From assembly GCA_041675285.1 (NCBI GenBank), contig JBAYTZ010000007.1, positions 1,480 to 65,479 of the forward strand: 64,000 nucleotides of DNA, given 5' to 3'. This stretch comes from Candidatus Delongbacteria bacterium (GTDB lineage: Bacteria; CAIWAD01). The position numbers and the translations under genes were made by a program. Of the stretch, positions 10,601 through 24,350 are shown piece by piece. Under the pieces are notes generated by a model, which worked only from the letters and a program-made list of their open reading frames with translations, did no database searches and was not told where the DNA came from. Numbering within the stretch: the stretch's first letter is position 1; each line of letters opens with the position of its first letter.

Positions 10601-11200
10601 ATGCTATTCATGAGGCCCGGCAGCGGCTGGATCGAAGTGATCTGCGGCAGCATGTACAGCGGCAAGACCGAGGAGCTGATCCGCCGGCTGCGCCTGGCGC
10701 GCATCGCCCGCAAGAGCGTGCAGATCTTCAAGCCCGAGCTGGACACGCGCTACTCGAGCACGGGCATCGTCAGCCACAACGAGCAGAGCCTGGGCAGCCT
10801 GGTGGTCGCGCGGGCCCGGCAGATTCCCGAGCTGGCCGGCGACGCCGAGGTGATCGGCGTGGACGAGGCCCAGTTCTTCGACGACGAGCTGGTGCCCGTC
10901 TGCGAGGAGCTGGCCCGGGCCGGCCGGCGCGTGGTGGCGGCCGGGCTGGACAAGGACTGGCGCGGCGAACCCTTCGGCCTGATGCCGCGGCTGATGGCCG
11001 TGGCGGAGTTCGTCACCAAGCAGCACGCCATCTGCGTGGTCTGCGGCAACCCGGCCAACTTCTCCCAGCGCAAGACCCTGGCCCGCGAGCAGGTGCTGCT
11101 GGGCGCGGGGGACGTCTACGAGGCCCGCTGCCGGCACTGTTTCCAGGTGCCCAGCGAGGAGCAGCTGCGGTTGTTCGACCACAGTCCGGAACTGGACTGA
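10601..11200 (+). CDS. tdk: Thymidine kinase
   Basis: P-loop CGSMYSGKTEELIRR. C-terminal zinc ribbon CVVCG...CRHC. GGAGAGGGA RBS. Confidence 0.8.
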   Translation: MLFMRPGSGWIEVICGSMYSGKTEELIRRLRLARIARKSVQIFKPELDTRYSSTGIVSHNEQSLGSLVVARARQIPELAGDAEVIGVDEAQFFDDELVPVCEELARAGRRVVAAGLDKDWRGEPFGLMPRLMAVAEFVTKQHAICVVCGNPANFSQRKTLAREQVLLGAGDVYEARCRHCFQVPSEEQLRLFDHSPELD

Positions 11201-11230
11201 TCCACTGGCGGAGCGGAACAAGGAGCGTCC

Positions 11231-12532
11231 ATGCTGGAACGTCTGATGAGCTTCGCGGGCATCTTCGCCCTGCTCGGCATCGCCTGGCTGATGTCCAACG
11301 ACCGCAAGCACGTGAAGGCGAAACCGATTCTCTATGGCATGCTGCTGCAGCTGGCGCTGGGCGGCCTGCTGCTGGCCTGGGCTCCCGGGCGGGCGGGTTT
11401 CCAGTGGTTCTCCGACGGCGTCGCCTCGTTCCTGGCGCTGTCCGACAAGGGCGCCGAGTTCCTGTTCGGCAACCTCACCCGGCCCGAGCACTTCTTTCCC
11501 GGCGGGGGTTTCTGGCCGGGCTTCGGCTTCCAGTTCGCCTTCAAGGTCCTGCCCACGATCATCTTCTTCTCGGCCGTGATGTCCATTATGTATTACCTGG
11601 GCATCATGCAGGTCATCATCAAGGGCATGGCCCGCGCCGTGCAGAAGGTGATGGGCACCAGCGGCTCGGAGACCCTGAGCTGCACGGCCAACATCTTCGT
11701 GGGCCAGACCGAGGCCCCGCTGCTGATCAAACCTTTCCTCGCGGGCATGACCAACTCCGAGCTGCTGACCGTGATGGTGGGCGGCTTCGCCACCATCGCC
11801 GGCGGCGTGATGGCCGGCTACATCGCCATGGGCGTCAACGCCGGGCACCTGATCGTGGCCAGCGTGCTGAGCTGTCCGGCGGCCCTGGTGGTGGGGAAGA
11901 TCATCCAGCCGGAGACCGGCGTCTCCCAGACCGCGGGCAGGACGGAACTGCCCGTCATCAACGTGGGCGACAACGTGGTGGACGCCGCCGCTCGCGGCAC
12001 CACCGACGGACTGAAACTGGCCGCCAACGTGGCCGCCATGCTCATCGCCTTCATCTCGCTGATCGCGCTGGTGGACTGGATGCTGGGCGGCGCGGACGCG
12101 CTGATCGACGGGCGGCTGCTGGGTGGCGCGGCGCTGCCCTCGGGCGAGTTCGCCGGCTGGTTCCCGGGCAGCCTGCGCACCTTCTTCGGCACGCTGCTCG
12201 CGCCGCTGGCCTTCCTGATGGGCGTGCCCTGGCAGGACGCCGGGGCCGTGGGCAACCTGCTGGGCATCAAGCTCAGCATCAACGAATTCGTGGGCTACTC
12301 CACCCTGGCGGAGTTGATCCAGACCCAGAGCATCACGCCGCGCGCGCAGGTGATCGCCACCTACGCCATGTGCGGCTTCGCCAATTTCAGCAGCATCGGA
12401 ATCCAGATCGGCGGGATCGGGGCGCTGGCGCCCGAGCGGCGCGGGGACTTGGCTCGGCTGGGGCTGAAGGCGATGTTCGGTGGCGCCATCGCCTCCTGGA
12501 TCACGGCCTGCATCGCCGGCATGATGATCTGA
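11231..12532 (+). CDS. nupC: Concentrative nucleoside transporter, NupC/CNT family
   Basis: Multi-TM protein with NupC family signature regions (GFANFSSIGIQIGGIGALAPERR, TELPVINVGDNVVDAAARG). Confidence 0.75.
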   Translation: MLERLMSFAGIFALLGIAWLMSNDRKHVKAKPILYGMLLQLALGGLLLAWAPGRAGFQWFSDGVASFLALSDKGAEFLFGNLTRPEHFFPGGGFWPGFGFQFAFKVLPTIIFFSAVMSIMYYLGIMQVIIKGMARAVQKVMGTSGSETLSCTANIFVGQTEAPLLIKPFLAGMTNSELLTVMVGGFATIAGGVMAGYIAMGVNAGHLIVASVLSCPAALVVGKIIQPETGVSQTAGRTELPVINVGDNVVDAAARGTTDGLKLAANVAAMLIAFISLIALVDWMLGGADALIDGRLLGGAALPSGEFAGWFPGSLRTFFGTLLAPLAFLMGVPWQDAGAVGNLLGIKLSINEFVGYSTLAELIQTQSITPRAQVIATYAMCGFANFSSIGIQIGGIGALAPERRGDLARLGLKAMFGGAIASWITACIAGMMI

Positions 12533-12626
12533 GTTCCCGTCGGATCGGACGCTGCGGAGTCGGCTGGATGTTGGCAATCACGGATCCCGGCCTCCGCCGG
12601 GATGACAGCGAAGGATCGGCATATCC

Positions 12627-13439
12627 ATGCATGAGCAGATCCGGCAGGCCGCCGCGTTCGTGAGACAAGAGCTGGGCGAGATCCCGCCGCGCGCCGTGGT
12701 GCTGGGCAGCGGGCTGGGCGTCCTGGTGGACCACATGGACGGGGCCCGGGAACTGTCCACGGCGGCGATTCCGCACTTCCCGGTCTCCACCGTGCCCGGC
12801 CACGCGGGCCGGCTGGTGGCCGGGCGGCTGGACGGCACGCCCGTGCTGGCGCTGAAAGGACGCGTCCACGCCTACGAAGGCTACAGCCAGGAGCAGGTGG
12901 TCTTTCCCATCCGCCTGTTCGCCGCGCTGGGCGTGAAGGCCCTGGTCACCACCAACGCCGTGGGCTGCGTCAACCGGCTGTTGCGGCCGGGGGACCTCGT
13001 GCTGCTGACAGACCAGCTCAACCTGATGTTTCGCAATCCCCTGCGCGGCCCCAACGACGATGCCCTGGGTCCGCGCTTCCCCGACATGAGCGCGGCCTAC
13101 GACCCGGGGCTGAACCAGTGCGCGCGCGAGACCGCCCGGGAACTGGGCCTGGACCTGAAGTGCGGCGTGATGGCCGGGCTGCTGGGCCCCAGCTACGAGA
13201 CGCCGGCGGAGATCCGCATGCTGGCGCGGCTGGAGGCCGACGTCGTGGGCATGAGCACCATCCCCGAGGCCATCGCGGCCCGCCACCTGGGCCTGCCCAT
13301 GGCCGCCATCAGCTGCGTGACCAACTACGCCGCCGGACTGGGCGCCGGGACGCTGAACCACGCCGAGGTCACGGACGTGGCCGAGCAGGCCCGCGAGCGC
13401 TTCTCCGCCCTCTTGTCCGCGCTGCTAGCCAGGATCTGA
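12627..13439 (+). CDS. punA: Purine nucleoside phosphorylase (trimeric PNP/MTAP family)
   Basis: GSGLG, VPGHAGRLV, ALVTTNAVGC and MSTIPE motifs of PNP family 2. Confidence 0.75.
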   Translation: MHEQIRQAAAFVRQELGEIPPRAVVLGSGLGVLVDHMDGARELSTAAIPHFPVSTVPGHAGRLVAGRLDGTPVLALKGRVHAYEGYSQEQVVFPIRLFAALGVKALVTTNAVGCVNRLLRPGDLVLLTDQLNLMFRNPLRGPNDDALGPRFPDMSAAYDPGLNQCARETARELGLDLKCGVMAGLLGPSYETPAEIRMLARLEADVVGMSTIPEAIAARHLGLPMAAISCVTNYAAGLGAGTLNHAEVTDVAEQARERFSALLSALLARI

Positions 13440-13440
13440 G

Positions 13441-14724
13441 ATGAGCGCGCGCTGGCTCCCCGCCTTGCTGCTGGCCTGCCTGGCCGCCCTGGCCCAGGAG
13501 GAGCCCGACGAGAGTGCGGGGCCGGCTCCGGGCGACTGGACCGAATGGCGCGTGCGCAGCCTGCACTGCACGGGCCTCATGCACACGGACTCCAGCGTCA
13601 TCCTGCGCGAGCTGGAGCTGCGGCCCGGCGTGGGCTACAGCGACCGGCTGCTGCAGGAGGACGCGCGCGCCGTCAAGAACACCAACCTGTTCGCGCGGCT
13701 GGTGGTCTCGGTCAACCCGGACAGCAGCGAAGAGGCGGTGGACATCGTCTACGCGGTCAGCGAGCGGCCGAGCTGGCTGGCCTATCCCATCCTGACGCCC
13801 ACCGATCGGCTGGGCTGGGTCTACGGCTTCGCCCTGATGAACCGCAACCAGGGCGGGATGGGGCGCCGGCTGGACCTGCAGGCCGAGTTCGGCGAACACC
13901 TCAGCTATTCTTTCTACCTGCAGGAACCCTGGTTCCTGGGACGACGCCAGCCGGTCTCGCTCTACGTCAACCGGCGCCGCAGCGACTCGGCGGACGGCGA
14001 CTACCGCAAGGTCAACAAGGAAGTGCGGCTGGGCTGGCAGCACTACTTCGACCGGGAGACGCTGTTGGGGGTCCATCCCTCCTGGCAGGAGGTCACCGTG
14101 CACGACCGCCGGCCGCTGGCGCAGCCGGCCACCAGCAATCCGCTGGGCGTGGACGTGTTCGGCGGGCTGGGACTGGTCGTGGAGCGCAACACCACGGACT
14201 ACCACGCCAGTCCGCGCACGGGCTCGGTGCAGAGCGCGGGGCTGAGCGCCTTCGGGCTGGGGGGGTCTGAGATGCCGGCGGGACTGGCCGCCGGGCTGTC
14301 CCTGAGCCGGTTCCAGCCCCTGGGCGACAACCTGGTGCTGGGCCTGCACAGCGCGGCCGACCTGCTGACGGGGCGGCGCGCGGACTACATGAAGCACTAT
14401 CTTGGCCAGCGGGGCCGAGTGCGGGCCGGCGGCGTGGACCAGTGGCCGGGCTGGAGCCTGTGGCACGGCAGCGCCGAGTTGCGGATGACCCTTCTGCCCA
14501 GGCAGGTCTTCTTCCAGCACGTGGACTTCGGGCTGGGCGCCGTGGCCTTCCTGGACGGGGGCCTGGTCTGGAGCGACGTGTTCCAGGGCCGGCGGCTGGC
14601 GGCGGGGGGCGCGGGCGTGGGTCTGCGCCTCTACGCGCCGTTCGTGGAGGTGGGACGGGTGGACCTGGCCTGGTCGCCCACGCATGGAGCCATGATCCAG
14701 ATCGGACAGGGGCATTCCTTTTGA
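13441..14724 (+). CDS. Omp85 / bacterial surface antigen (D15) family outer-membrane protein with a single POTRA domain
   Basis: Signal peptide. POTRA-like N-terminal region (VILRELELRPGVGYSDRLLQEDARAVKNTNLFARLVVSVNP...VDIVYAVSERP). C-terminal beta-barrel with aromatic-rich strands ending in F. Confidence 0.55.
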   Translation: MSARWLPALLLACLAALAQEEPDESAGPAPGDWTEWRVRSLHCTGLMHTDSSVILRELELRPGVGYSDRLLQEDARAVKNTNLFARLVVSVNPDSSEEAVDIVYAVSERPSWLAYPILTPTDRLGWVYGFALMNRNQGGMGRRLDLQAEFGEHLSYSFYLQEPWFLGRRQPVSLYVNRRRSDSADGDYRKVNKEVRLGWQHYFDRETLLGVHPSWQEVTVHDRRPLAQPATSNPLGVDVFGGLGLVVERNTTDYHASPRTGSVQSAGLSAFGLGGSEMPAGLAAGLSLSRFQPLGDNLVLGLHSAADLLTGRRADYMKHYLGQRGRVRAGGVDQWPGWSLWHGSAELRMTLLPRQVFFQHVDFGLGAVAFLDGGLVWSDVFQGRRLAAGGAGVGLRLYAPFVEVGRVDLAWSPTHGAMIQIGQGHSF

Positions 14725-16928: not shown

Positions 16929-18148
16929 CGACGACGGCGCTCCCCCCCACGCGCGTCCTCTGGCTGGAGGACCGGCCCGCAGAGATCCGGGATCCGCTGC
17001 CCGAGGCCGTGGAGGCCGTGGTGGTGGGCGCCGGCCTGGCCGGACTTTCCGTGGCCCTGCACCTGCGGCGGCTGGGGGTGGAGGTCTGCGTGCTGGAGCG
17101 CGAGCATCCCGCGGCGGGGGCCTCCGGCCGCAACGCCGGCCATCTGCTGGCCGGGACCTCCGAGTACTACAACCGCGCCGTGGATTTGCTGGGGCGCGAG
17201 AAGGCCCGGGAGATCTGGGCCTTCACCGTGGCCAACCAGCAGGACTTCTCCGCCCACCTGCTCTCGCTGCCCGTGGAGACGGGCTACCAGCGCTGCGGCT
17301 ACCTGGCCTGCGCCACCACCGAGCACGAGCGTCGCGAGCTGGAGCAGACCGCCCAGTTGCTGCGCGAGGACGGGTTCGAGAGCGAGTTCTGGAGCGCCGA
17401 GCAGCTGGTGAAGCGCACGGGGCGCAGTCCCTTCCTGGGGGCGCGCTACTCGCCGGACGACGGACAGGTGCAGCCCGCCCGCGTGGTCTGGGCCCTGGCG
17501 GACGAGTTGCGCGCCGCCGGCGGCCGCTTGGCCTCGCGCACGGAGGTTCTGGCGGTGGAGAGCGACCCCGCGGGCTGGCGCCTGGAGCTGCGCACGCCGG
17601 AGGGCGCCCGCCGGCTGCGCGCCACGGTGGTGATCCATTGCACCAACGCCTGGACCTTCCAGCTGCTGCCCGCCTTCACGGACCTGATCAGCCCCGTGCG
17701 CGGCCAGATGCTGGCCACGGAGCGCCTGCACAAGGTGATTCCCATGGCCATGGCCGCCAACTACGGCTACGAGTACTGGCGCCAGGCCCCCAACGGCGAA
17801 GTGGTGCTGGGCGGCTGGCGCTGGTCCCAGCAGGAGCAGGAGATCGGCGTCCTGACGGAGACGCTCAACCCGGAGATCCACGCCGGGCTCTCCACCTTCC
17901 TGCAAGGCCACTTCCCCAAGCTCGAGGGCGCGGCCATCCGCTGCGCCTGGACCGGCGTGATGGGCTTCTCCCGGGACGGCCTGCCCTGGGTGGGCGAGGT
18001 GCCGGGTCGCCAGGGCCAGTACCTGGCGGCGGGCTTCACGGGGCACGGTTTCGGCCTGGCGTGGCGCTGCGCCCAGGGGCTGGCAGAAGAAATCGTCCAG
18101 GGCCGCCTCTGCGAAAATCTGCGCTGGTTCCGGCCGCGACGGGCCTGA
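16925..18148 (+). CDS. FAD-dependent oxidoreductase (DAO / glycine-oxidase-like)
   Basis: Dinucleotide-binding motif VVVGAGLAGLSVALHL...LE; ATGA overlap with the upstream gene. Confidence 0.7.
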   Translation: MTTTALPPTRVLWLEDRPAEIRDPLPEAVEAVVVGAGLAGLSVALHLRRLGVEVCVLEREHPAAGASGRNAGHLLAGTSEYYNRAVDLLGREKAREIWAFTVANQQDFSAHLLSLPVETGYQRCGYLACATTEHERRELEQTAQLLREDGFESEFWSAEQLVKRTGRSPFLGARYSPDDGQVQPARVVWALADELRAAGGRLASRTEVLAVESDPAGWRLELRTPEGARRLRATVVIHCTNAWTFQLLPAFTDLISPVRGQMLATERLHKVIPMAMAANYGYEYWRQAPNGEVVLGGWRWSQQEQEIGVLTETLNPEIHAGLSTFLQGHFPKLEGAAIRCAWTGVMGFSRDGLPWVGEVPGRQGQYLAAGFTGHGFGLAWRCAQGLAEEIVQGRLCENLRWFRPRRA

Positions 18149-18150
18149 GT

Positions 18151-18404
18151 CCACCTTTCTGCTGGCGCCGGTATGGTGGCCCAACGCCTGTCATCCCCCG
18201 GCTTGACCGGGGGATCCCAACCCTGATCAGTCATCCAGGCGGGGGCTGGGGTGCCATGTTTTCCACCTTTCTGCTAGCGCCGGTATGGTGGCCCAACGCC
18301 TGTCATCCCCCGGCTTGACCGGGGGATCCCAACCCTGATCAGTCATCCTGGCGGGGGCTGGGGCGCCATGTTTTCCACCTTTCTGCTTGCGCCAGAAAGG
18401 TGGA
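18151..18404. repeat. Tandem direct repeat of a 112-bp unit (two full copies ~97% identical plus a truncated third copy), ending in an 11-bp-stem hairpin
   Basis: Unit starts CCACCTTTCTGCT(G/A)GCGCCGGTATGGTGG at 18151, 18263 and 18375. Each full unit contains a perfect 9-bp-stem hairpin ATCCCCCGG-cttga-CCGGGGGAT (e.g. 18193..18215). The array ends with TCCACCTTTCT-gcttgcgcc-AGAAAGGTGGA (18374..18404). Confidence 0.8.
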
Positions 18405-18818
18405 GCCAAAGAGGCGCTTTTTCTCAGCGGCCAGAGTCAGGCCACCTCGCGGTGGCCTTCCGCTGGCCGGCGATTGGCCTTCCTGAAACCGTGTAGTTGG
18501 TTCCGCCTGACGGCGTCACCACCTGGTTCTGGTTCAGCCCTGTGGGCTTCACCTCACTCGATCAATGACTCCACCTGTCGCACGACTTCACTGTGCCTCT
18601 GTGACTCTGTGTTGAAGAGCCACACCGACCCCTCCAGCAACCACTTCGAGCCTTCGAACCTTCGTGTTCAAGGGCCTCACGGAATGGGCACCAAAACTCT
18701 CACGGCCGAGGAGAGCTGAGCGCCACAGATGAGCCGATCGCCACCCAAACTGAACGGCCTGGGGAGTTCCGGCTTTGGGGTGGCGCGCGATCCATATCAA
18801 CATAGAACGGGGTCGATT

Positions 18819-18871
18819 GAGTGACGCGAGAGTCACACGGGGACGCCGGAGTCACGTGGCCCTGGAGTCAC
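18819..18871 (+). promoter_or_regulatory. Cluster of GAGTCAC / GTGAC repeats (candidate regulator-binding array) in the long 5' region of the secreted-protein gene cluster
   Basis: GAGTGAC at 18819, then GAGTCAC at 18830, 18849 and 18865 (spacings 19 and 16 bp). The first pair forms the palindrome GTGAC-N7-GTCAC. It lies within a ~650-bp lower-GC non-coding region. Confidence 0.35.
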
Positions 18872-19056
18872 GCTTGCCGGGTGGGCGGTGGGACAGGTGG
18901 CGCCGGCAGGCTGCAGTGAGAGCGGAAGTGGTTGTTGTAGAATGGAATTATGCCCAATGGCGGCAGGGCGCCAGGTGCATCAAAACTGGCCCTGCCTTTG
19001 CATAGAGTTCCCCAGGATTCAACCTGTGACAATAACCCATCGAAGAGGAGTTCCCC

Positions 19057-19752
19057 ATGAAGAAATTGCTGACCCTCGCACTGACGGGCGTCCTGGCCGC
19101 CGCCGCTCTGGCCGTCGAGTCTGAGCCCTCCAACACCGTCGGCTTCATCAGCCGTTCCACCACCGCCGGTTCCTACACGGCCTTCAGCGCTTGCCCCAAG
19201 GGCCTGGGCGTTGACATGCCGGCCGTCAGCGTCCTGGGCACCCAGGGCTTCAACGGCGATCAGATCCTGGCTTATGACGGTGGCTGGCTGACCTACAGCT
19301 ACACGCCGGACAACACCTGGGGCGGCCTGACCCTGGACTACAACGGCATGTACATCTATCGCAACAACCACGGCGCCGCCGCCACCCTGGTCGTCGCGGG
19401 CGACGTCATCCCCGAAGGCACCAACGTGACCTTGGCCACCTTCCCGGGTGCCAATACCTACGTCGGCTTCGGCAACCCCCTGCCCATGGACGTGGATCTG
19501 GACACCAACGACCTGACGCTGGTCGCCGACGGCTTCAACACCGGCGACATCGTCCTGGAGTACAACGGTGGCTGGCTGACCTACGTGTACAGCGGCAGCT
19601 TCGGCTATGACCTGACCGCCGGTCGCTCCTACGTGATGCGCACGGGCGCCGCCTTCACCTGGGACTACACCATCCCCACGGGTGCTGTGGCCACCACGAG
19701 CACGGCTCCGATGAAGGTCGCCAAGGCTGCCACGTCGGTCGAGCTGAACTAA
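19057..19752 (+). CDS. Secreted protein with internal two-fold duplication; unknown function
   Basis: GAGGAG RBS. Signal peptide MKKLLTLALTGVLAAAALA. Two homologous halves (ILAYDGGWLTYSYT... and IVLEYNGGWLTYVYS...). No T9SS CTD. Confidence 0.55.
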   Translation: MKKLLTLALTGVLAAAALAVESEPSNTVGFISRSTTAGSYTAFSACPKGLGVDMPAVSVLGTQGFNGDQILAYDGGWLTYSYTPDNTWGGLTLDYNGMYIYRNNHGAAATLVVAGDVIPEGTNVTLATFPGANTYVGFGNPLPMDVDLDTNDLTLVADGFNTGDIVLEYNGGWLTYVYSGSFGYDLTAGRSYVMRTGAAFTWDYTIPTGAVATTSTAPMKVAKAATSVELN

Positions 19753-19798: not shown

Positions 19799-20839
19799 AT
19801 GAAGAAGATTCTGCTCGGAACTCTGGCCGTTGTCAGCCTGGCTTCCATCAGCTCGGCCAACCTGCAGCTCAATTTCCCCTCCACGAAGCTCGGCGTCGGC
19901 CCCGAGAACGTGGTGGGCAACGTGTCCGCTGACGCCATGTTGACGGTGGACGGCACGGATGTCGCCCGCGTCCCGGCCAACGTGATCTTCGAAGGCGGCA
20001 GCCCGCTGGCCGTCTCCCTGGTGTGGGCCTACGATTCGGATCCCGCCTACAACCTCGAGTTCCTGATCGGCGAGGAAGGTTCCTTCGTGGCCATCCGCGA
20101 CGTCAAGGTGTACCTGACCAGCTCCTGCGATCCGCCGCAGGTCCTGACCTATTCCCGTGGCGTGAGCAACCAGTATGCCTACAACCTGGGCACTCCCTTC
20201 CCGGGCACGCTGCCGACCTCCATGCCGGTCTTCGCCACCTTGGAGCCCTGCGGTCCGGCTTGCGAGCCTGGCTTCACCTTTGCGCCGGCTGGCTATGATT
20301 TCGGAACGGTGATCACCAATGTTCCGCAGACCACGACCTTCGAAATCTGCAACACGGCTGTTGGTGACTGCCCGCCCATCGGTGGCACGGTGACCGAGAA
20401 TTGCGCCGTCTTCTCCGTTGAGCCCCTGAACTACGTGCTGGCCCCGGGCGAGTGCCAGATCTTCACCGTGACCTTCACGGGCGTCCGTGGTGGACCGACG
20501 GTCTGTGACATCATCACCGACCATGGCGTGTTCACCTGCACTGTGGACGATCAGGTGGCCGGCACCGAGACCCCCGCGGTCTTCGCGCTGGGCGAAGCCT
20601 ATCCGAACCCCTTCAACCCCACCACCACCCTGAGCTACTCGGTGCCCGAGAATCAGGAAGCCGTGCTGAGCGTGTACAACACGAACGGCCAGCTGGTGAA
20701 GACCCTGGTGAACGGCATGGTCGAGCGTGGCGAGCACAAGGTTGTGTTCGACGCCAGCGACCTGGCCTCCGGTGTGTACGTCTACACGCTGAAGACCGCT
20801 TCCCAGAGCGCCATGCACAAGATGGTCCTGGTCAAGTAA
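19799..20839 (+). CDS. Secreted T9SS-CTD protein, paralog A: novel conserved N-domain, then a Cys-rich ASH/choice-of-anchor-like Ig domain, then a Por_Secre_tail C-terminal domain
   Basis: AAGGAG RBS. Signal peptide. N-domain ANLQLNFPSTKLGVGPENVVGNVSADAMLTVDG...SLVWAYDSD. Central YDFGTV...CN..G.CP...ENCAVFSVEP...GECQ motif. C-terminus NPFNPTTTLSYSVPENQEAVLSVYNTNGQLVKTLVNG...GVYVYTLKT matches the type-A T9SS CTD. Confidence 0.7.
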   Translation: MKKILLGTLAVVSLASISSANLQLNFPSTKLGVGPENVVGNVSADAMLTVDGTDVARVPANVIFEGGSPLAVSLVWAYDSDPAYNLEFLIGEEGSFVAIRDVKVYLTSSCDPPQVLTYSRGVSNQYAYNLGTPFPGTLPTSMPVFATLEPCGPACEPGFTFAPAGYDFGTVITNVPQTTTFEICNTAVGDCPPIGGTVTENCAVFSVEPLNYVLAPGECQIFTVTFTGVRGGPTVCDIITDHGVFTCTVDDQVAGTETPAVFALGEAYPNPFNPTTTLSYSVPENQEAVLSVYNTNGQLVKTLVNGMVERGEHKVVFDASDLASGVYVYTLKTASQSAMHKMVLVK

Positions 20840-20864
20840 GCTGCTTCACAGCCTGCTGATCCTG

Positions 20865-20896
20865 CGCCCCCCGCTTCGGCGGGGGGCGCTTTTTGT
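20865..20896 (+). terminator. Rho-independent terminator
   Basis: GCGCCCCCCG-cttcg-GCGGGGGGCGC followed by TTTTTG. Confidence 0.8.
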
Positions 20897-21043
20897 AGTG
20901 TGGTCGTAGTTGTGTTGGACGGAGCATTGACGGCACGCCGCTTCAGTTATCGAATGATTGGCCTTGTAATTGCTGCTGTTTCCGTAACCCAAGAGGGCTT
21001 TGCCCCAAGTGGATAAGCTCAACCTGTAGCAAGGAGACAAGAG

Positions 21044-22066
21044 ATGAAGCATGTGCTCGCAGCCTTGGCGCTATGCAGTTTGGCCACGACCAGTTCGGCC
21101 AACCTGCAGCTCAGTTTCCCCTCCACGAAGCTCGGCGTCGGCCCCGAGAACGTGGTGGGCAACGTGTCCGCCGACGCCATGTTGACGGTGGACGGCACGG
21201 ACGTCGCCCGCATCCCGGCCAACGTGATTTTCGAAGGCGGCAGCCCGCTGGCCGTCTCCCTGGTGTGGGCCTACGATTCGGACGCCACCTACAACCTCGA
21301 GTTCCTGATCGGCGAAGAGGGTGCCTTCGTGGCCATCCGCGACGTCAAAGTGTACCTGACCTGCCCGCACTACACAAATTATGTGTTCACGTATGCTCGT
21401 GGCGCAAATAATCAGTACGCTTACAACCTTGGAACTCCCTTCCCAGGCACCCTGCCGACCTCCATGCCGGTCTTCGCCACCCTCATGTGCGATCCGTTCC
21501 CGATCTGTGGCGTTGATGTCACCAGCCTTGACTTTGGCACCGTGTACAATCCTGCCCCCGTGCAGCAGAGCTTCCAGGTTTGCAACGTCGGTGGCGACAT
21601 CCTGGTGGGCACCGTGACCGAGAGCTGCCCGGCCTTCAGTATCGTAGCCGGCGCTGACTTTTTGCTGGCCGCTGGCGAGTGCCAGAGCGTCCTGGTCGAG
21701 TTCGTCGGCGACCACTCCGGCCCGATCGTCTGCGACCTGCTGCTGGGCGACTGCACCGTGACCTGCATCGTGAACGACATCGTGGCCGGCACCGAGACCC
21801 CCGCGGTCTTCGCGCTGTCCGAAGCCTATCCGAACCCCTTCAACCCCACCACGACCCTGAGCTACTCGGTTCCCGAGAATCAGGAAGCCGTGCTGAGCGT
21901 GTACAACACGAACGGCCAGCTGGTGAAGACCCTGGTGAACGGCATGGTCGAGCGTGGCGAGCACAAGGTTGTGTTCGACGCCAGCGACCTGGCATCCGGT
22001 GTGTACGTCTACACGCTGAAGACCGCTTCCCAGAGCGCCATGCACAAGATGGTCCTGGTCAAGTAA
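21044..22066 (+). CDS. Secreted T9SS-CTD protein, paralog B; mosaic relative to paralog A
   Basis: AAGGAGA RBS. The N-domain is ~95% nt-identical to paralog A (21097-21360 vs 19853-20116). The C-terminal ~280 nt plus terminator are identical to A. The central ~150 codons are divergent. Confidence 0.7.
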   Translation: MKHVLAALALCSLATTSSANLQLSFPSTKLGVGPENVVGNVSADAMLTVDGTDVARIPANVIFEGGSPLAVSLVWAYDSDATYNLEFLIGEEGAFVAIRDVKVYLTCPHYTNYVFTYARGANNQYAYNLGTPFPGTLPTSMPVFATLMCDPFPICGVDVTSLDFGTVYNPAPVQQSFQVCNVGGDILVGTVTESCPAFSIVAGADFLLAAGECQSVLVEFVGDHSGPIVCDLLLGDCTVTCIVNDIVAGTETPAVFALSEAYPNPFNPTTTLSYSVPENQEAVLSVYNTNGQLVKTLVNGMVERGEHKVVFDASDLASGVYVYTLKTASQSAMHKMVLVK

Positions 22067-22090
22067 GCTGCTTCACAGCCTGCTGATCCT

Positions 22091-22122
22091 GCGCCCCCCG
22101 CTTTGGCGGGGGGCGCTTTTTT
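22091..22122 (+). terminator. Rho-independent terminator (near-identical copy of the one at 20865)
   Basis: GCGCCCCCCG-ctttg-GCGGGGGGCGC followed by TTTTTTG. Confidence 0.8.
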
Positions 22123-22346
22123 GTGGCTGCTCGAGTTTGTCCGCCCCCGTTGCCCGTTGTCAACGGTCAGCTGTCCACTTGATCTGACAGAGTCGGGGCG
22201 CATTTCCTGACCCGCAGGATTCGGCTTGTGACCGGCACTTCCTGGTCCTATGTTGCGCCCGCCTACCTGGAAGTCCATCACCGTTAGACGCGCTGGCCAC
22301 TGGGCATGAGTCGATCCTATGTTCGTGTCGCCGGCAGGGGGGGACC

Positions 22347-23366
22347 ATGAAGAGTTGGAGTCTGTGGCTTGTGCTGCTGCTTGGGCTTGGTCTGGACAGC
22401 CGGGCCAACGTGCAGTTCAGCTTCCCGGTCGCGCGGCTGGGAACGGGACCCTACAACACCGTCCAAAACCTGAGTGCGGACGCCATTCTCGTGGTGGATG
22501 GCGTGGAAATCGCCGGGCGCCTGCCTGCCAACCAGATTTTCCAAGGGGGCAGTCCGGAGCAGGTGTCCTTGGTTTGGGCCTATGACAGCGACTTCGCGGA
22601 GTGGCTCGAGGGTGACGGTGCGCTGGTGCAACTGCGCAACATCCGCCTGACGCTCACCTGCCCGGACGGCAGCAACTCCCTCAGCCAGACCTGCGGGAGC
22701 AGTCCCATCCTCTACGAGCTAGGGTCCCATACCTGGTTTACGCAGTCCTGTCCGCCGCAAACCTTTCCAACCCTGGTATGTGGCTGCACGGGGCAATTGG
22801 CGCTTGCACCCTCCACGCTGGACTTTGGACGCGTCGGGCAGGCCGACCCGGTCAGCATGTCCTTCTGGATCTGCAATCCGGGACCCGTGGCCTGTCCACC
22901 GGTGGCGGGAAGCCTGGTGGCGGAATGCCCGGCCTTTTCCGTTTTCCCGGAAGAGTATCTGGTGCCAGGAGATTCCTGTCAGGAGGTGGTAGTCACCTTT
23001 GTCGGCAGCCATGCGGGTCCAACGAGTTGTGAAATCGTGACAACGCACGGTGTGGTGACCTGCGTCGTGGACGACGAAGTGGCTGCGACGGAAGGGCCCG
23101 CCGGGTTTGGGTTGGGCGAGGCCGTTCCCAATCCCTTCAACCCCACCACGACCCTGAGCTACTCGGTACCGGAGACCGAAGTCGTCACGCTGAAGGTGTA
23201 CAACACGCAGGGCCAGTTGGTGAGGACCCTGGTGAACGGCCTGGTGGAGCGAGGCGAGCACAAGGTGGTGTTCGACGCCGCTGAGCTGGCCTCCGGCGTC
23301 TACGTAAGCACGCTGACCTCGGCGACCCGGAGCGCCGCCGCGCGCAAACTGCTCTTAGTCAAGTAG
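22347..23366 (+). CDS. Secreted T9SS-CTD protein, paralog C (more diverged)
   Basis: Signal peptide. N-domain ANVQFSFPVARLGTGPYNTVQNLSADAILVVDG...VSLVWAYDSD. Central LDFGRV...CNPGPVACPP...ECPAFSVFP...GDSCQ domain. CTD NPFNPTTTLSYSVPETEVVTLKVYNTQGQLVRTLVNG. Confidence 0.65.
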   Translation: MKSWSLWLVLLLGLGLDSRANVQFSFPVARLGTGPYNTVQNLSADAILVVDGVEIAGRLPANQIFQGGSPEQVSLVWAYDSDFAEWLEGDGALVQLRNIRLTLTCPDGSNSLSQTCGSSPILYELGSHTWFTQSCPPQTFPTLVCGCTGQLALAPSTLDFGRVGQADPVSMSFWICNPGPVACPPVAGSLVAECPAFSVFPEEYLVPGDSCQEVVVTFVGSHAGPTSCEIVTTHGVVTCVVDDEVAATEGPAGFGLGEAVPNPFNPTTTLSYSVPETEVVTLKVYNTQGQLVRTLVNGLVERGEHKVVFDAAELASGVYVSTLTSATRSAAARKLLLVK

Positions 23367-23394
23367 GCGCCATCCCAACGCTGTCGAAACCGAA

Positions 23395-23419
23395 GCGCCC
23401 TCCCTCGGGGGGCGTTTTC
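23395..23419 (+). terminator. Rho-independent terminator
   Basis: GCGCCCTCCC-tc-GGGGGGCG followed by TTTTCG. Confidence 0.6.
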
Positions 23420-23609
23420 GCTCTGGCCGGATGACGCCGGCGTCTGCGCAGGCCCCCTGACCGCGGTGGACGGCGGGTTGTGCGGGTGCGGGTGCAGGGA
23501 TTCCGCGACCGCGCCTGACGGGTAGAGCGGGGCGACTTGGCTGGTGCGGCTGCGGCGAGAGTGCTTCCTTGCCGGCGCAGGGATTTCACGATGAGCGGGA
23601 GGAACGGCG

Positions 23610-24350
23610 ATGCGCATTCGACTGGGATGGCTGGGCCTGGGGCTGTGGGCGGCCAGCGCGCAGGCCAATCTGCAATTGAATTTCCCGCTGGAGCGCCTGG
23701 GCACGGGGGACTACAACGGCGTCGAGTTCCTGTCGGCGGACGCCCTGCTGGAGGTGGACGGCGTCGCCGTGGTCCGGCTGGCCGCCAATCAGCGGGTCGT
23801 GGGCGGCAGCCCGGTGATGGTGGGGCTGATCTGGGCCTATGATTCCGATCCCGCCCACCAGCTGGAAGAGCTGCTGAACCAGGGCGCCAGCGTGGTGCTG
23901 CGCGACGTCCAGCTGCGCCTGAGCTGCCCGGCCGGCAGCCCCGTCCTGAGCTGGTCCCGGGGCGTCAACTTCGCCTACCCCTACCAGCTCGGCACGCCCT
24001 TTCCCGTCAACCTGCCCGCCGCCATGCCTGTCTTCGACACCCTGGATTGTGACACGGCCCTGGAGGAGGGCGCCGCGCCCCAGGCCCTGAGCTTCGCCCT
24101 GGGGGAGGCCCAGCCCAACCCCTTCAACCCGACGACCAGTCTCAGTTACACGCTGCCCGCCAGCCAGGATGTCACTCTGCGAGTCTACAACCCCGGCGGC
24201 CAACTGGTGCGCACGCTGGCCCAGGGCCGGATGCCGCGCGGTGTCCACAACGTTCTGTTCGACGCCTCCCGGCTGGCCTCGGGCCTCTACTTGTGCCGGC
24301 TGGAATCCGACGGCCGGGCGGTCACGCGCAAGATCCTCTATCTGAAGTAG
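23610..24350 (+). CDS. Secreted T9SS-CTD protein, paralog D (short form lacking the central Ig-like domain)
   Basis: N-domain ANLQLNFPLERLGTGDYNGVEFLSADALLEVDG...GLIWAYDSD and the shared YQLGTPFPVNLPAAMPVFDTL motif, directly followed by the CTD NPFNPTTSLSYTLPASQDVTLRVYNPGGQLVRTL. Confidence 0.6.
   Translation: MRIRLGWLGLGLWAASAQANLQLNFPLERLGTGDYNGVEFLSADALLEVDGVAVVRLAANQRVVGGSPVMVGLIWAYDSDPAHQLEELLNQGASVVLRDVQLRLSCPAGSPVLSWSRGVNFAYPYQLGTPFPVNLPAAMPVFDTLDCDTALEEGAAPQALSFALGEAQPNPFNPTTSLSYTLPASQDVTLRVYNPGGQLVRTLAQGRMPRGVHNVLFDASRLASGLYLCRLESDGRAVTRKILYLK

Follow-up and report, generated by a model that had tools for sequence, protein, structure and literature searches.

The 112-bp tandem repeat that directly follows a gene for a FAD-dependent oxidoreductase in this Candidatus Delongbacteria genome arose by the recent duplication, within this locus, of junk-like intergenic DNA around a CGTC-tagged REP palindrome and half of a terminator hairpin. 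The reading that we favor, with a probability of roughly 0.8, is that the whole array represents a non-coding mosaic of the REP/BIME kind in the 3' UTR of the oxidoreductase operon, in which a lineage-specific tandem duplication has recently taken place. The array is most likely neutral or selfish DNA. A REP/BIME-like element was among the candidates named in a preliminary description of this locus, and it is the one upheld by the analysis: the palindrome fits the definition of the CGTC-tagged REPs, and it is reiterated in tandem together with its flanking DNA.

The window, i.e., the complete stretch of 64,000 nucleotides that was analysed, corresponds to ENA contig ERZ27247358:k141_1128737 of a short-read metagenome assembly. 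Tandem Repeats Finder (TRF) places the array at 18150-18393, with a period of 112, 2.2 copies, 96% matches and a score of 460, and a repeat search assigns to the partial third copy the first 30 nt of the unit, at 18374-18403. The preliminary description counted 2.3 copies and let the repeat begin at 18151; the repeat itself stands, with its start one base earlier, and so does the estimate of about 97% identity between the first two copies, which differ at three sites (18164 G/A, 18237 A/T and 18252 T/C). The TGA codon of the oxidoreductase occupies 18146-18148, hence the array starts 2 nt past the stop codon, right behind it as originally reported. The oxidoreductase protein is an exact match of MFA7331126.1, from a Candidatus Delongbacteria MAG. 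The spacer that separates its gene from the next real gene (18149-19056, 908 bp) has no coding signal: GC3 is about 0.6 in every frame, versus 0.85-0.94 in the real genes here, and the earlier view that the array lacks coding capacity agrees with the absence from it of the codon-position GC pattern of those genes. The next gene, at 19057-19752 on the plus strand, codes for a signal-peptide protein and is followed by genes for paralogous proteins with T9SS sorting tails. No tRNA or tmRNA is found in the window. Elsewhere in the window, the segment 34736-34918 contains 16.6 copies of an 11-bp unit (CGGTGCCAGGT) at 93% identity, with overlapping ORFs on both strands. The coordinates of the main features are collected in Table 1.

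Table 1. Features of the repeat locus and of the loci compared with it; positions are those of the window unless another contig is named
Feature	Position	Strand	Evidence or remark
DAO-family FAD-dependent oxidoreductase gene, 407 aa	16925..18148	+	Pfam PF01266, E 8.6e-65; GC3 0.94
Tandem unit, copy 1 (modules A-B-C-D)	18150..18261	+	TRF and repeat search
Tandem unit, copy 2	18262..18373	+	TRF and repeat search; 109/112 identical to copy 1 (97%)
Module A, degenerate copy of terminal hairpin A' (TCCACCTTTCTGCTGGCGCCGGTATGGTGG)	18150..18179, again 18262-18291	+	repeat search; nhmmer
CGTC-type REP palindrome 1, tGTC-ATCCCCCGG-CTTGA-CCGGGGGAT-CCC	18189..18218	+
CGTC-type REP palindrome 2	18301..18330	+	identical to palindrome 1
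Head-only REP remnant GTCATCC (GTCATCCAGGCG...) in module D	18230..18253, again 18342-18365	+	40 nt past the REP head
Hairpin A' (partial third copy), perfect 12-bp stem TCCACCTTTCTG-cttgcgc-CAGAAAGGTGGA, 7-nt loop	18374..18404	+
Composite terminator-like structure: outer stem GGCGCC (18362-18367) / GGCGC (18413-18417) around hairpin A', then TTTTTCT (18418-18424)	18362..18424	+
Dispersed element E, ~200 bp, several hairpins	18358..18560	+	first ~13 nt also end each tandem unit
Conserved regulatory region of the next gene: four GAGTCAC/GTGAC repeats (18819-18871) and sigma-54-like box TGGCCC-N5-TTGCA (18987-19002)	18819..19002	+	conserved in L124, L126, L139, L145
Third REP of the window, tGTC ATCCCGGC ggag GCCGGGAT CCG, 8-bp stem, 4-nt loop	12581..12607 (12582-12606)	-	95-nt spacer between nucleoside transporter and PNP genes
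Locus L138	same assembly, ENA ERZ27247358 contig k141_741719		spacer after acyl-CoA dehydrogenase gene

Each unit of the repeat is a mosaic of four modules, designated A (30 nt), B (a 10-nt linker), C and D. The relationship of module A to the terminal hairpin A' is also seen in nhmmer searches, in which the profile of the dispersed element E (see below) matches 18248-18296 (E 7e-6) and 18150-18183. Module C is a palindrome preceded by an unpaired tGTC and followed by CCC; its perfect 9-bp stem with a 5-nt loop occupies 18193-18215 in the first copy and 18305-18327 in the second, so that the perfect 9-bp stem ascribed to every full unit is indeed there. Both palindromes lie on the same strand, head-to-tail and 112 bp apart, and the 31-mer around them occurs in only two places in the window, both within the array, and in none of 100 shuffles. 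In module D there is a further GTCATCC head, which lacks a matching stem, and the module ends with GGGGYGCCATGTTTT, the same sequence that precedes hairpin A'; the junctions D-to-A and D-to-A' differ. The truncated third copy does close into a hairpin, as proposed, with a stem of 12 rather than 11 bp. The array starts with TCCACCTTTCTG and ends with its exact inverse, CAGAAAGGTGGA. Conserved copies of hairpin A' are seen in L124/L125, of the sister lineage, and also at L138, an unrelated locus.

The superfamily of CGTC-tagged REPs was described by Di Nocera, De Gregorio and Rocco (2013, BMC Genomics 14:522; PMC3733652). Its members consist of an unpaired CGTC tag (often TGTC, and TGTC or CCTC are allowed), a stem of 8-9 bp in which positions 1 and 2 are complementary A/T, a loop of 4-5 nt, and a short unpaired tail of 3 nt with the consensus CCA. 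They are extragenic, lie near the 3' end of the upstream ORF, form families of tens to thousands of units per genome, and have been reported without a dedicated transposase; the hosts are mainly alphaproteobacteria, and also Chlorobi, Bacteroidetes, Spirochaetes and Thermotogae (PMC3733652). Most of these REPs are found as inverted head-to-head pairs, head-to-tail arrangements being negligible and clusters rare, and clusters have been described as tandemly reiterated together with flanking DNA (PMC3733652).

In the DNA studied here, the tag is TGTC in the three copies of the window and CGTC in two copies at L138. Stem and loop measure 9 bp and 5 nt in the array, and 8 bp and 4 nt (GGAG) in the third REP of the window. 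The tail is CCC in the array and at L138 and CCG in the copy at 12582, so that its first two bases fit CCA and the third differs, and every REP copy is located in a non-coding spacer. Inclusion of the palindrome in the CGTC-tagged superfamily is thus supported at the level of sequence. The array palindromes correspond to the 9-bp-stem, 5-nt-loop type of families 3-4 in the published classification, and the one at 12582-12606 is of the 8-bp, 4-nt type seen in family 1 (Di Nocera 2013, PMC3733652). Like the known members, the array is extragenic, sits near the 3' end of the upstream ORF between genes of the same direction, and has no transposase gene nearby. Unlike them, it belongs to a host phylum, Candidatus Delongbacteria, that is absent from the five phyla listed (PMC3733652), its copies are head-to-tail and clustered where head-to-head dimers predominate in the published set, and its tails read CCC or CCG in place of CCA.

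These palindromes are far more frequent than expected by chance. The pattern GTCATCC-N(5-30)-GGATCC has three matches in the window, versus 0.07 expected, and canonical REPs amount to five copies at three loci in about 85 kb of the assembly (64 kb + 20 kb), versus 0.1 in shuffles; several head-only fragments accompany the five canonical copies at the same three loci. We also scanned reference genomes for the bare palindrome with the loop left free, a loose pattern, and most of the at least 120 loci recovered are unrelated. Among the matches listed, 36 of 129 bare-palindrome occurrences have both the C/TGTC head and the CC tail, compared to a chance expectation of about 0.25. These tagged copies, again among the matches listed, have the tail CCA in 32 of 36 cases and almost always the loop CTTGT or CTTGA, come mostly from alphaproteobacteria (Xanthobacter, Acetobacteraceae, Micavibrio, Parvibaculaceae) with some MAGs of other phyla, and frequently form inverted pairs 80-110 bp apart. 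The 28-mer of the array is found in identical form in Xanthobacter, Micavibrio and other genomes; a scan of IMG/VR for it gave 0 matches. In Xanthobacter tagetidis (L120, 6361-6958, and L110, 5405-6697), the REP family of the array is likewise multiplied in tandem along with the DNA beside it, both as a repeat of 285 bp (2.1 copies, at 97%) and as nested arrays with periods of 151, 315 and 467 bp. The units there are composite, and the palindromes alternate in orientation.

The second constituent of the mosaic is element E, which is present at three unrelated loci and whose 5' end is made of hairpin A' and the adjoining U-tract. Its nhmmer profile matches only the window locus, the orthologues L124/L125, locus L138 and, on the reverse strand, locus L126, and nothing else in the window. 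At L126, the reverse-oriented E lies upstream of PNP, in the same nucleoside transporter-PNP spacer that in the window holds the third REP. Comparison of the four sequences shows that several hairpins of E have been kept by way of compensatory changes. Locus L138 was reached through six-frame translations of the repeat compared with predicted proteins, which led to one spurious ORF, P0136. Its spacer contains an identical REP with a CGTC head and a compensatory variant of it (ATCCACCGG/CCGGTGGAT), several head-only REP fragments spaced by 22 nt, a further module designated X, and a copy of hairpin A' with the U-tract, continued by about 150 more bases of E. The two E sequences are 83.7% identical (window 18361-18553, L138 10083-10273), and the REP of the window, taken together with its head-only remnant, shares 87.5% identity with L138 10372-10419 over a length of 48 nt. 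Several short-read contigs end inside one of these modules, L127 in the REP, L128 in X, L125 in E and L001 in the unit, and the start of L123 also falls within E; such behavior is expected of multi-copy repeats in assemblies and counts as indirect evidence of them.

Directly after the REP/X/E mosaic, the L138 contig (68% GC) has an island of 43% GC at 10730-14400. It contains small ORFs, including SLFN_AlbA_2 and a VapB/PIN pair, and, between the ORFs, four attC-like imperfect palindromes of about 110 nt (11732-11842, 12468-12559, 13545-13635 and 14273-14382). The island looks like an integron cassette array with no integrase nearby.

The history of the site can be read from orthologous loci. 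In the sister lineage (L124/L125), the oxidoreductase is 98% identical, and the flanks have a nucleotide identity of 92% as far as the stop codon and of about 81% once E begins; between these two points, where the two units take up 215 bp in the window, the sister lineage has 165 bp of unrelated sequence, composed of a REP-like left arm and module X. The 112-bp duplication is therefore younger than the split from the sister strain. In relatives whose protein is 86%, 79% and 69% identical, the spacers are 303, 260 and 241 bp long, are devoid of REP, X and E, and have the conserved regulatory region of the downstream gene at their very start, from which we conclude that the mosaic is a lineage-specific insertion. 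A relative at 84% has a different CGTC-type palindrome directly 3' of the stop codon, where its contig ends. Taken together, the orthologues indicate quick turnover of the site just past the stop codon.

As for the complete 112-bp unit, it has no second locus in the window, its specific 24-mer has 0 matches in JGI metagenome contigs, the 28-mer scan of IMG/VR did not reveal it either, and a protein-guided scan of the JGI contigs recovered distant homologues only, at 43% identity or less. Among predicted proteins, the whole unit was not found and a longer chimeric query had no match; P0136 matches itself alone in the representative library. In the preliminary description, a unit confined to this locus, with no transcript ends and no copy-number variation, was taken as a sign of a chance local duplication. 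In the searches above, the whole unit is confined to this locus, but its parts are dispersed repeats.

The conserved regulatory region lies outside the repeat and sets its right-hand limit. The sigma-54-like -24/-12 box is found about 120 nt past the GAGTCAC/GTGAC repeats and 55 nt before the ATG at 19057, and both elements are kept in every orthologous locus, mosaic-free ones included. A second sigma-54-like box, at 20959-20974, precedes the paralogue that starts at 21044. These motifs suggest control of the secreted-protein cluster by an enhancer-binding protein and sigma-54. The cluster includes four paralogous genes with Por_Secre_tail (T9SS sorting) domains in a row, at 19799-24344; the first two are 90-96% identical in nucleotide sequence over long stretches and are followed by near-identical canonical terminators (20864-20889 and 22091-22116).

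These observations can be accommodated by the following course of events. A lineage-specific block of about 600 bp extends from the stop codon to the conserved regulatory region downstream and consists of dispersed modules, namely REPs and E. Within this block, the segment A-B-REP-D, flanked by A and A', two diverged copies of the E hairpin of about 30 nt each, has recently been duplicated in tandem, most likely because A and A' recombined unequally or allowed replication to slip from one to the other, with the outcome A-B-REP-D / A-B-REP-D / A'. Module A is closer to the E hairpin of the L126 type (CGGATAGGTGG) than to A', and for this reason looks like an older, separate fragment of E rather than a recent copy of A'.

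The end of the array deserves separate consideration. The composite structure formed by hairpin A', the outer stem and the T-run folds as RNA with -37.1 kcal/mol (z -2.9), and its copy at L138 with -34.5 kcal/mol (z -3.6). Its loop exceeds 8 nt, which is why it is not called by a simple scan for the terminator consensus; in predicted fold it looks like a long-stem intrinsic terminator. In the sister strain, the same module carries a 13-bp tandem duplication, GCCAAAGAGTCAA / GCCAAAGAGGCGC (L124, 5888-5913), and a weakened stem (ACCGCTTTCTG), and thus varies between close strains. REPs and BIMEs of E. coli have established roles as exonuclease barriers, pause sites and terminators. By analogy with them, if the array is transcribed with the upstream gene, its two GC-rich REP hairpins would act as barriers to 3' exonucleases or as weak pause sites, and transcription would terminate at hairpin A' and its U-tract. 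A role of the RNA in the 3' UTR does not, however, predict that the minus strand of 18140-18440 folds better than the transcribed plus strand (z -4.3 versus -2.4), a difference that comes from CCCAGCCC/GGGUUGGG, which can pair via G-U on the minus strand alone. This counts against the preferred reading, as do the head-to-tail order of the REPs and their CCC/CCG tails.

Several other explanations of the array have to be weighed against a REP mosaic with a recent duplication. One is that it is a structured non-coding RNA, either a family of sRNA genes or a cis-regulatory leader of the downstream sigma-54-type cluster, with the repeats as repeated RNA domains. In favor of it, the region 18140-18440 folds better than its shuffles on either strand (z -2.4 for plus, -4.3 for minus), and the adjoining E retains hairpins through compensatory changes, as described above. 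On the other hand, one unit taken by itself does not surpass its shuffles in plus-strand folding (z -0.6), and no promoter-like site is seen inside or ahead of the array. The Rfam search suggested at the outset gave no match at gathering thresholds anywhere in the window and no family match even at E<=10, where the best match in 18000-19200 has E 0.51 and 17 bits, compared to a gathering score of 60. The sister strain does without the array, the other relatives do without the whole mosaic and yet keep both flanking genes and the regulatory region, and E occurs in either orientation relative to neighboring genes. The sRNA gene family put forward earlier thus has no support, given the lack of an Rfam match and of a promoter and the absence of the sequence from the orthologous loci, and a structured non-coding RNA is improbable here. 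Least credible of all is a stacked terminator or insulator, selected to shield the downstream sigma-54-type promoter from read-through. The strong composite hairpin and T-run at the end of the array would suit this role, as would the fact that, in mosaic-free relatives, no hairpin intervenes from the stop codon to the repeats that resemble upstream activator sites. But only the last, partial copy has a U-tract, which is absent from the internal REP hairpins, and the canonical terminators of this genome are of a different make, simple GC stems running straight into T-runs, none of which is called in the region. Moreover, the terminator module is present in the sister strain even though the tandem units are missing there, and the duplication therefore adds nothing obvious to it. 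The stacked terminator of the preliminary description, accordingly, survives for the final partial copy and not for the REP hairpins that precede it.

It is also unlikely that the tandem arrangement was produced by metagenome assembly, with a single true copy behind it and strain variants, or the short A/A' repeats, misjoined. The source is indeed a short-read assembly, and direct repeats of about 20-30 nt that flank the unit can make cycles in an assembly graph. Yet the copies differ at three sites, the two kinds of junction are not the same, and an independent k=31 assembly of SRR6484325 joins the copy-1 variant to the stop codon and breaks at 18194; this is the point where k-mers with the copy-1 G (18164) end, which suggests a second left context in the reads. 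No better prospects can be given to a mobile miniature element, of the MITE or REPIN-like sort, in which the 112-bp unit or the entire 255-bp array would have been inserted twice at a preferred target. The inverse sequences at the two ends of the array, the dispersal of its parts, and the contig ends inside modules are what such an element might leave. There is, however, no target-site duplication (the flanks read ...CTGAG and GCCAAAG), and the inverse sequences at the array's ends amount to nothing more than the conserved hairpin A', which is present without units in L124 and L138. The unit has no inverted REP partner and as a whole is not found elsewhere in the searches above, and a tblastn comparison of the window and L138 with an approximate query sequence, which is a weak test, gave no IS200-like transposase.

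Among described repeat systems, the BIMEs of E. coli are members of the GTAG superfamily in which defined linker motifs join REPs of alternating orientation (Y/Z). Going by what is generally known of them, the array shares with BIMEs the mosaic of REPs and short motifs, tandem reiteration, intergenic location after a stop codon and a copy number that differs between close strains; it differs from them in that the linkers are unrelated and both array REPs are on one strand, in direct orientation, so that a BIME of the E. coli type proper is rejected. The arrangement seen in the array and at L138 is also like that of Neisseria dRS3 and mosaic intergenic regions and of Rhizobium RIMEs, with the distinction that the partner repeats here are E and X; dRS3 is a target of phage or IS integration, and nothing of that kind is seen at the array locus. 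REPIN/RAYT systems likewise involve short palindromes that spread within genomes, and the inverted pairs formed by the alphaproteobacterial 28-mer, among the matches listed, resemble them. The array unit, in contrast, has neither an inverted partner nor a GTAG tag, and no RAYT gene was seen, nor any transposase among the genes called over 9057-29752; this class was therefore discarded. Three more classes were considered and rejected. A CRISPR array would have unique spacers of similar length between its repeats, whereas the stretches of 84 nt that separate the palindromes share 97% identity, and no cas domains are found in the neighboring genes. A MITE could account for the 12-bp inverted repeat with which the array begins and ends, but direct repeats do not flank the array, and the window and the JGI metagenome contigs yielded no further complete copy. 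An attC or att site was rejected on anatomy, and the duplication of an att or recombination site, raised in the preliminary description, found no support.

For annotation, the proposed origin accounts for a conspicuous repeat and for several contig breaks, and no new mechanism is indicated. An unlikely but more novel variant is that REP, X and E together constitute an intergenic cassette of Delongbacteria that is still active, spreads block-wise and carries its own terminator, or that E is an undescribed family of structured RNA. If the mosaic is such a cassette, the head-to-tail clusters, i.e., the 22-nt-spaced fragments at L138 and the 112-bp duplication itself, would be footprints of the propagation of CGTC REPs; and either an active cassette or a new structured RNA could bear on the way in which these transposase-less REPs propagate.

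The preferred reading, a REP mosaic with a recent local duplication, adds Candidatus Delongbacteria, a phylum close to the FCB group, to the hosts of CGTC-tagged REPs, with a core identical to that of the alphaproteobacterial copies. It adds to the question of how CGTC REPs spread and stay uniform without a dedicated transposase. Related genomes, in which the same site is empty, filled with a different sequence, or occupied by the tandem duplication, provide a natural comparison that may be used to study REP turnover and its effects on the 3' UTR.
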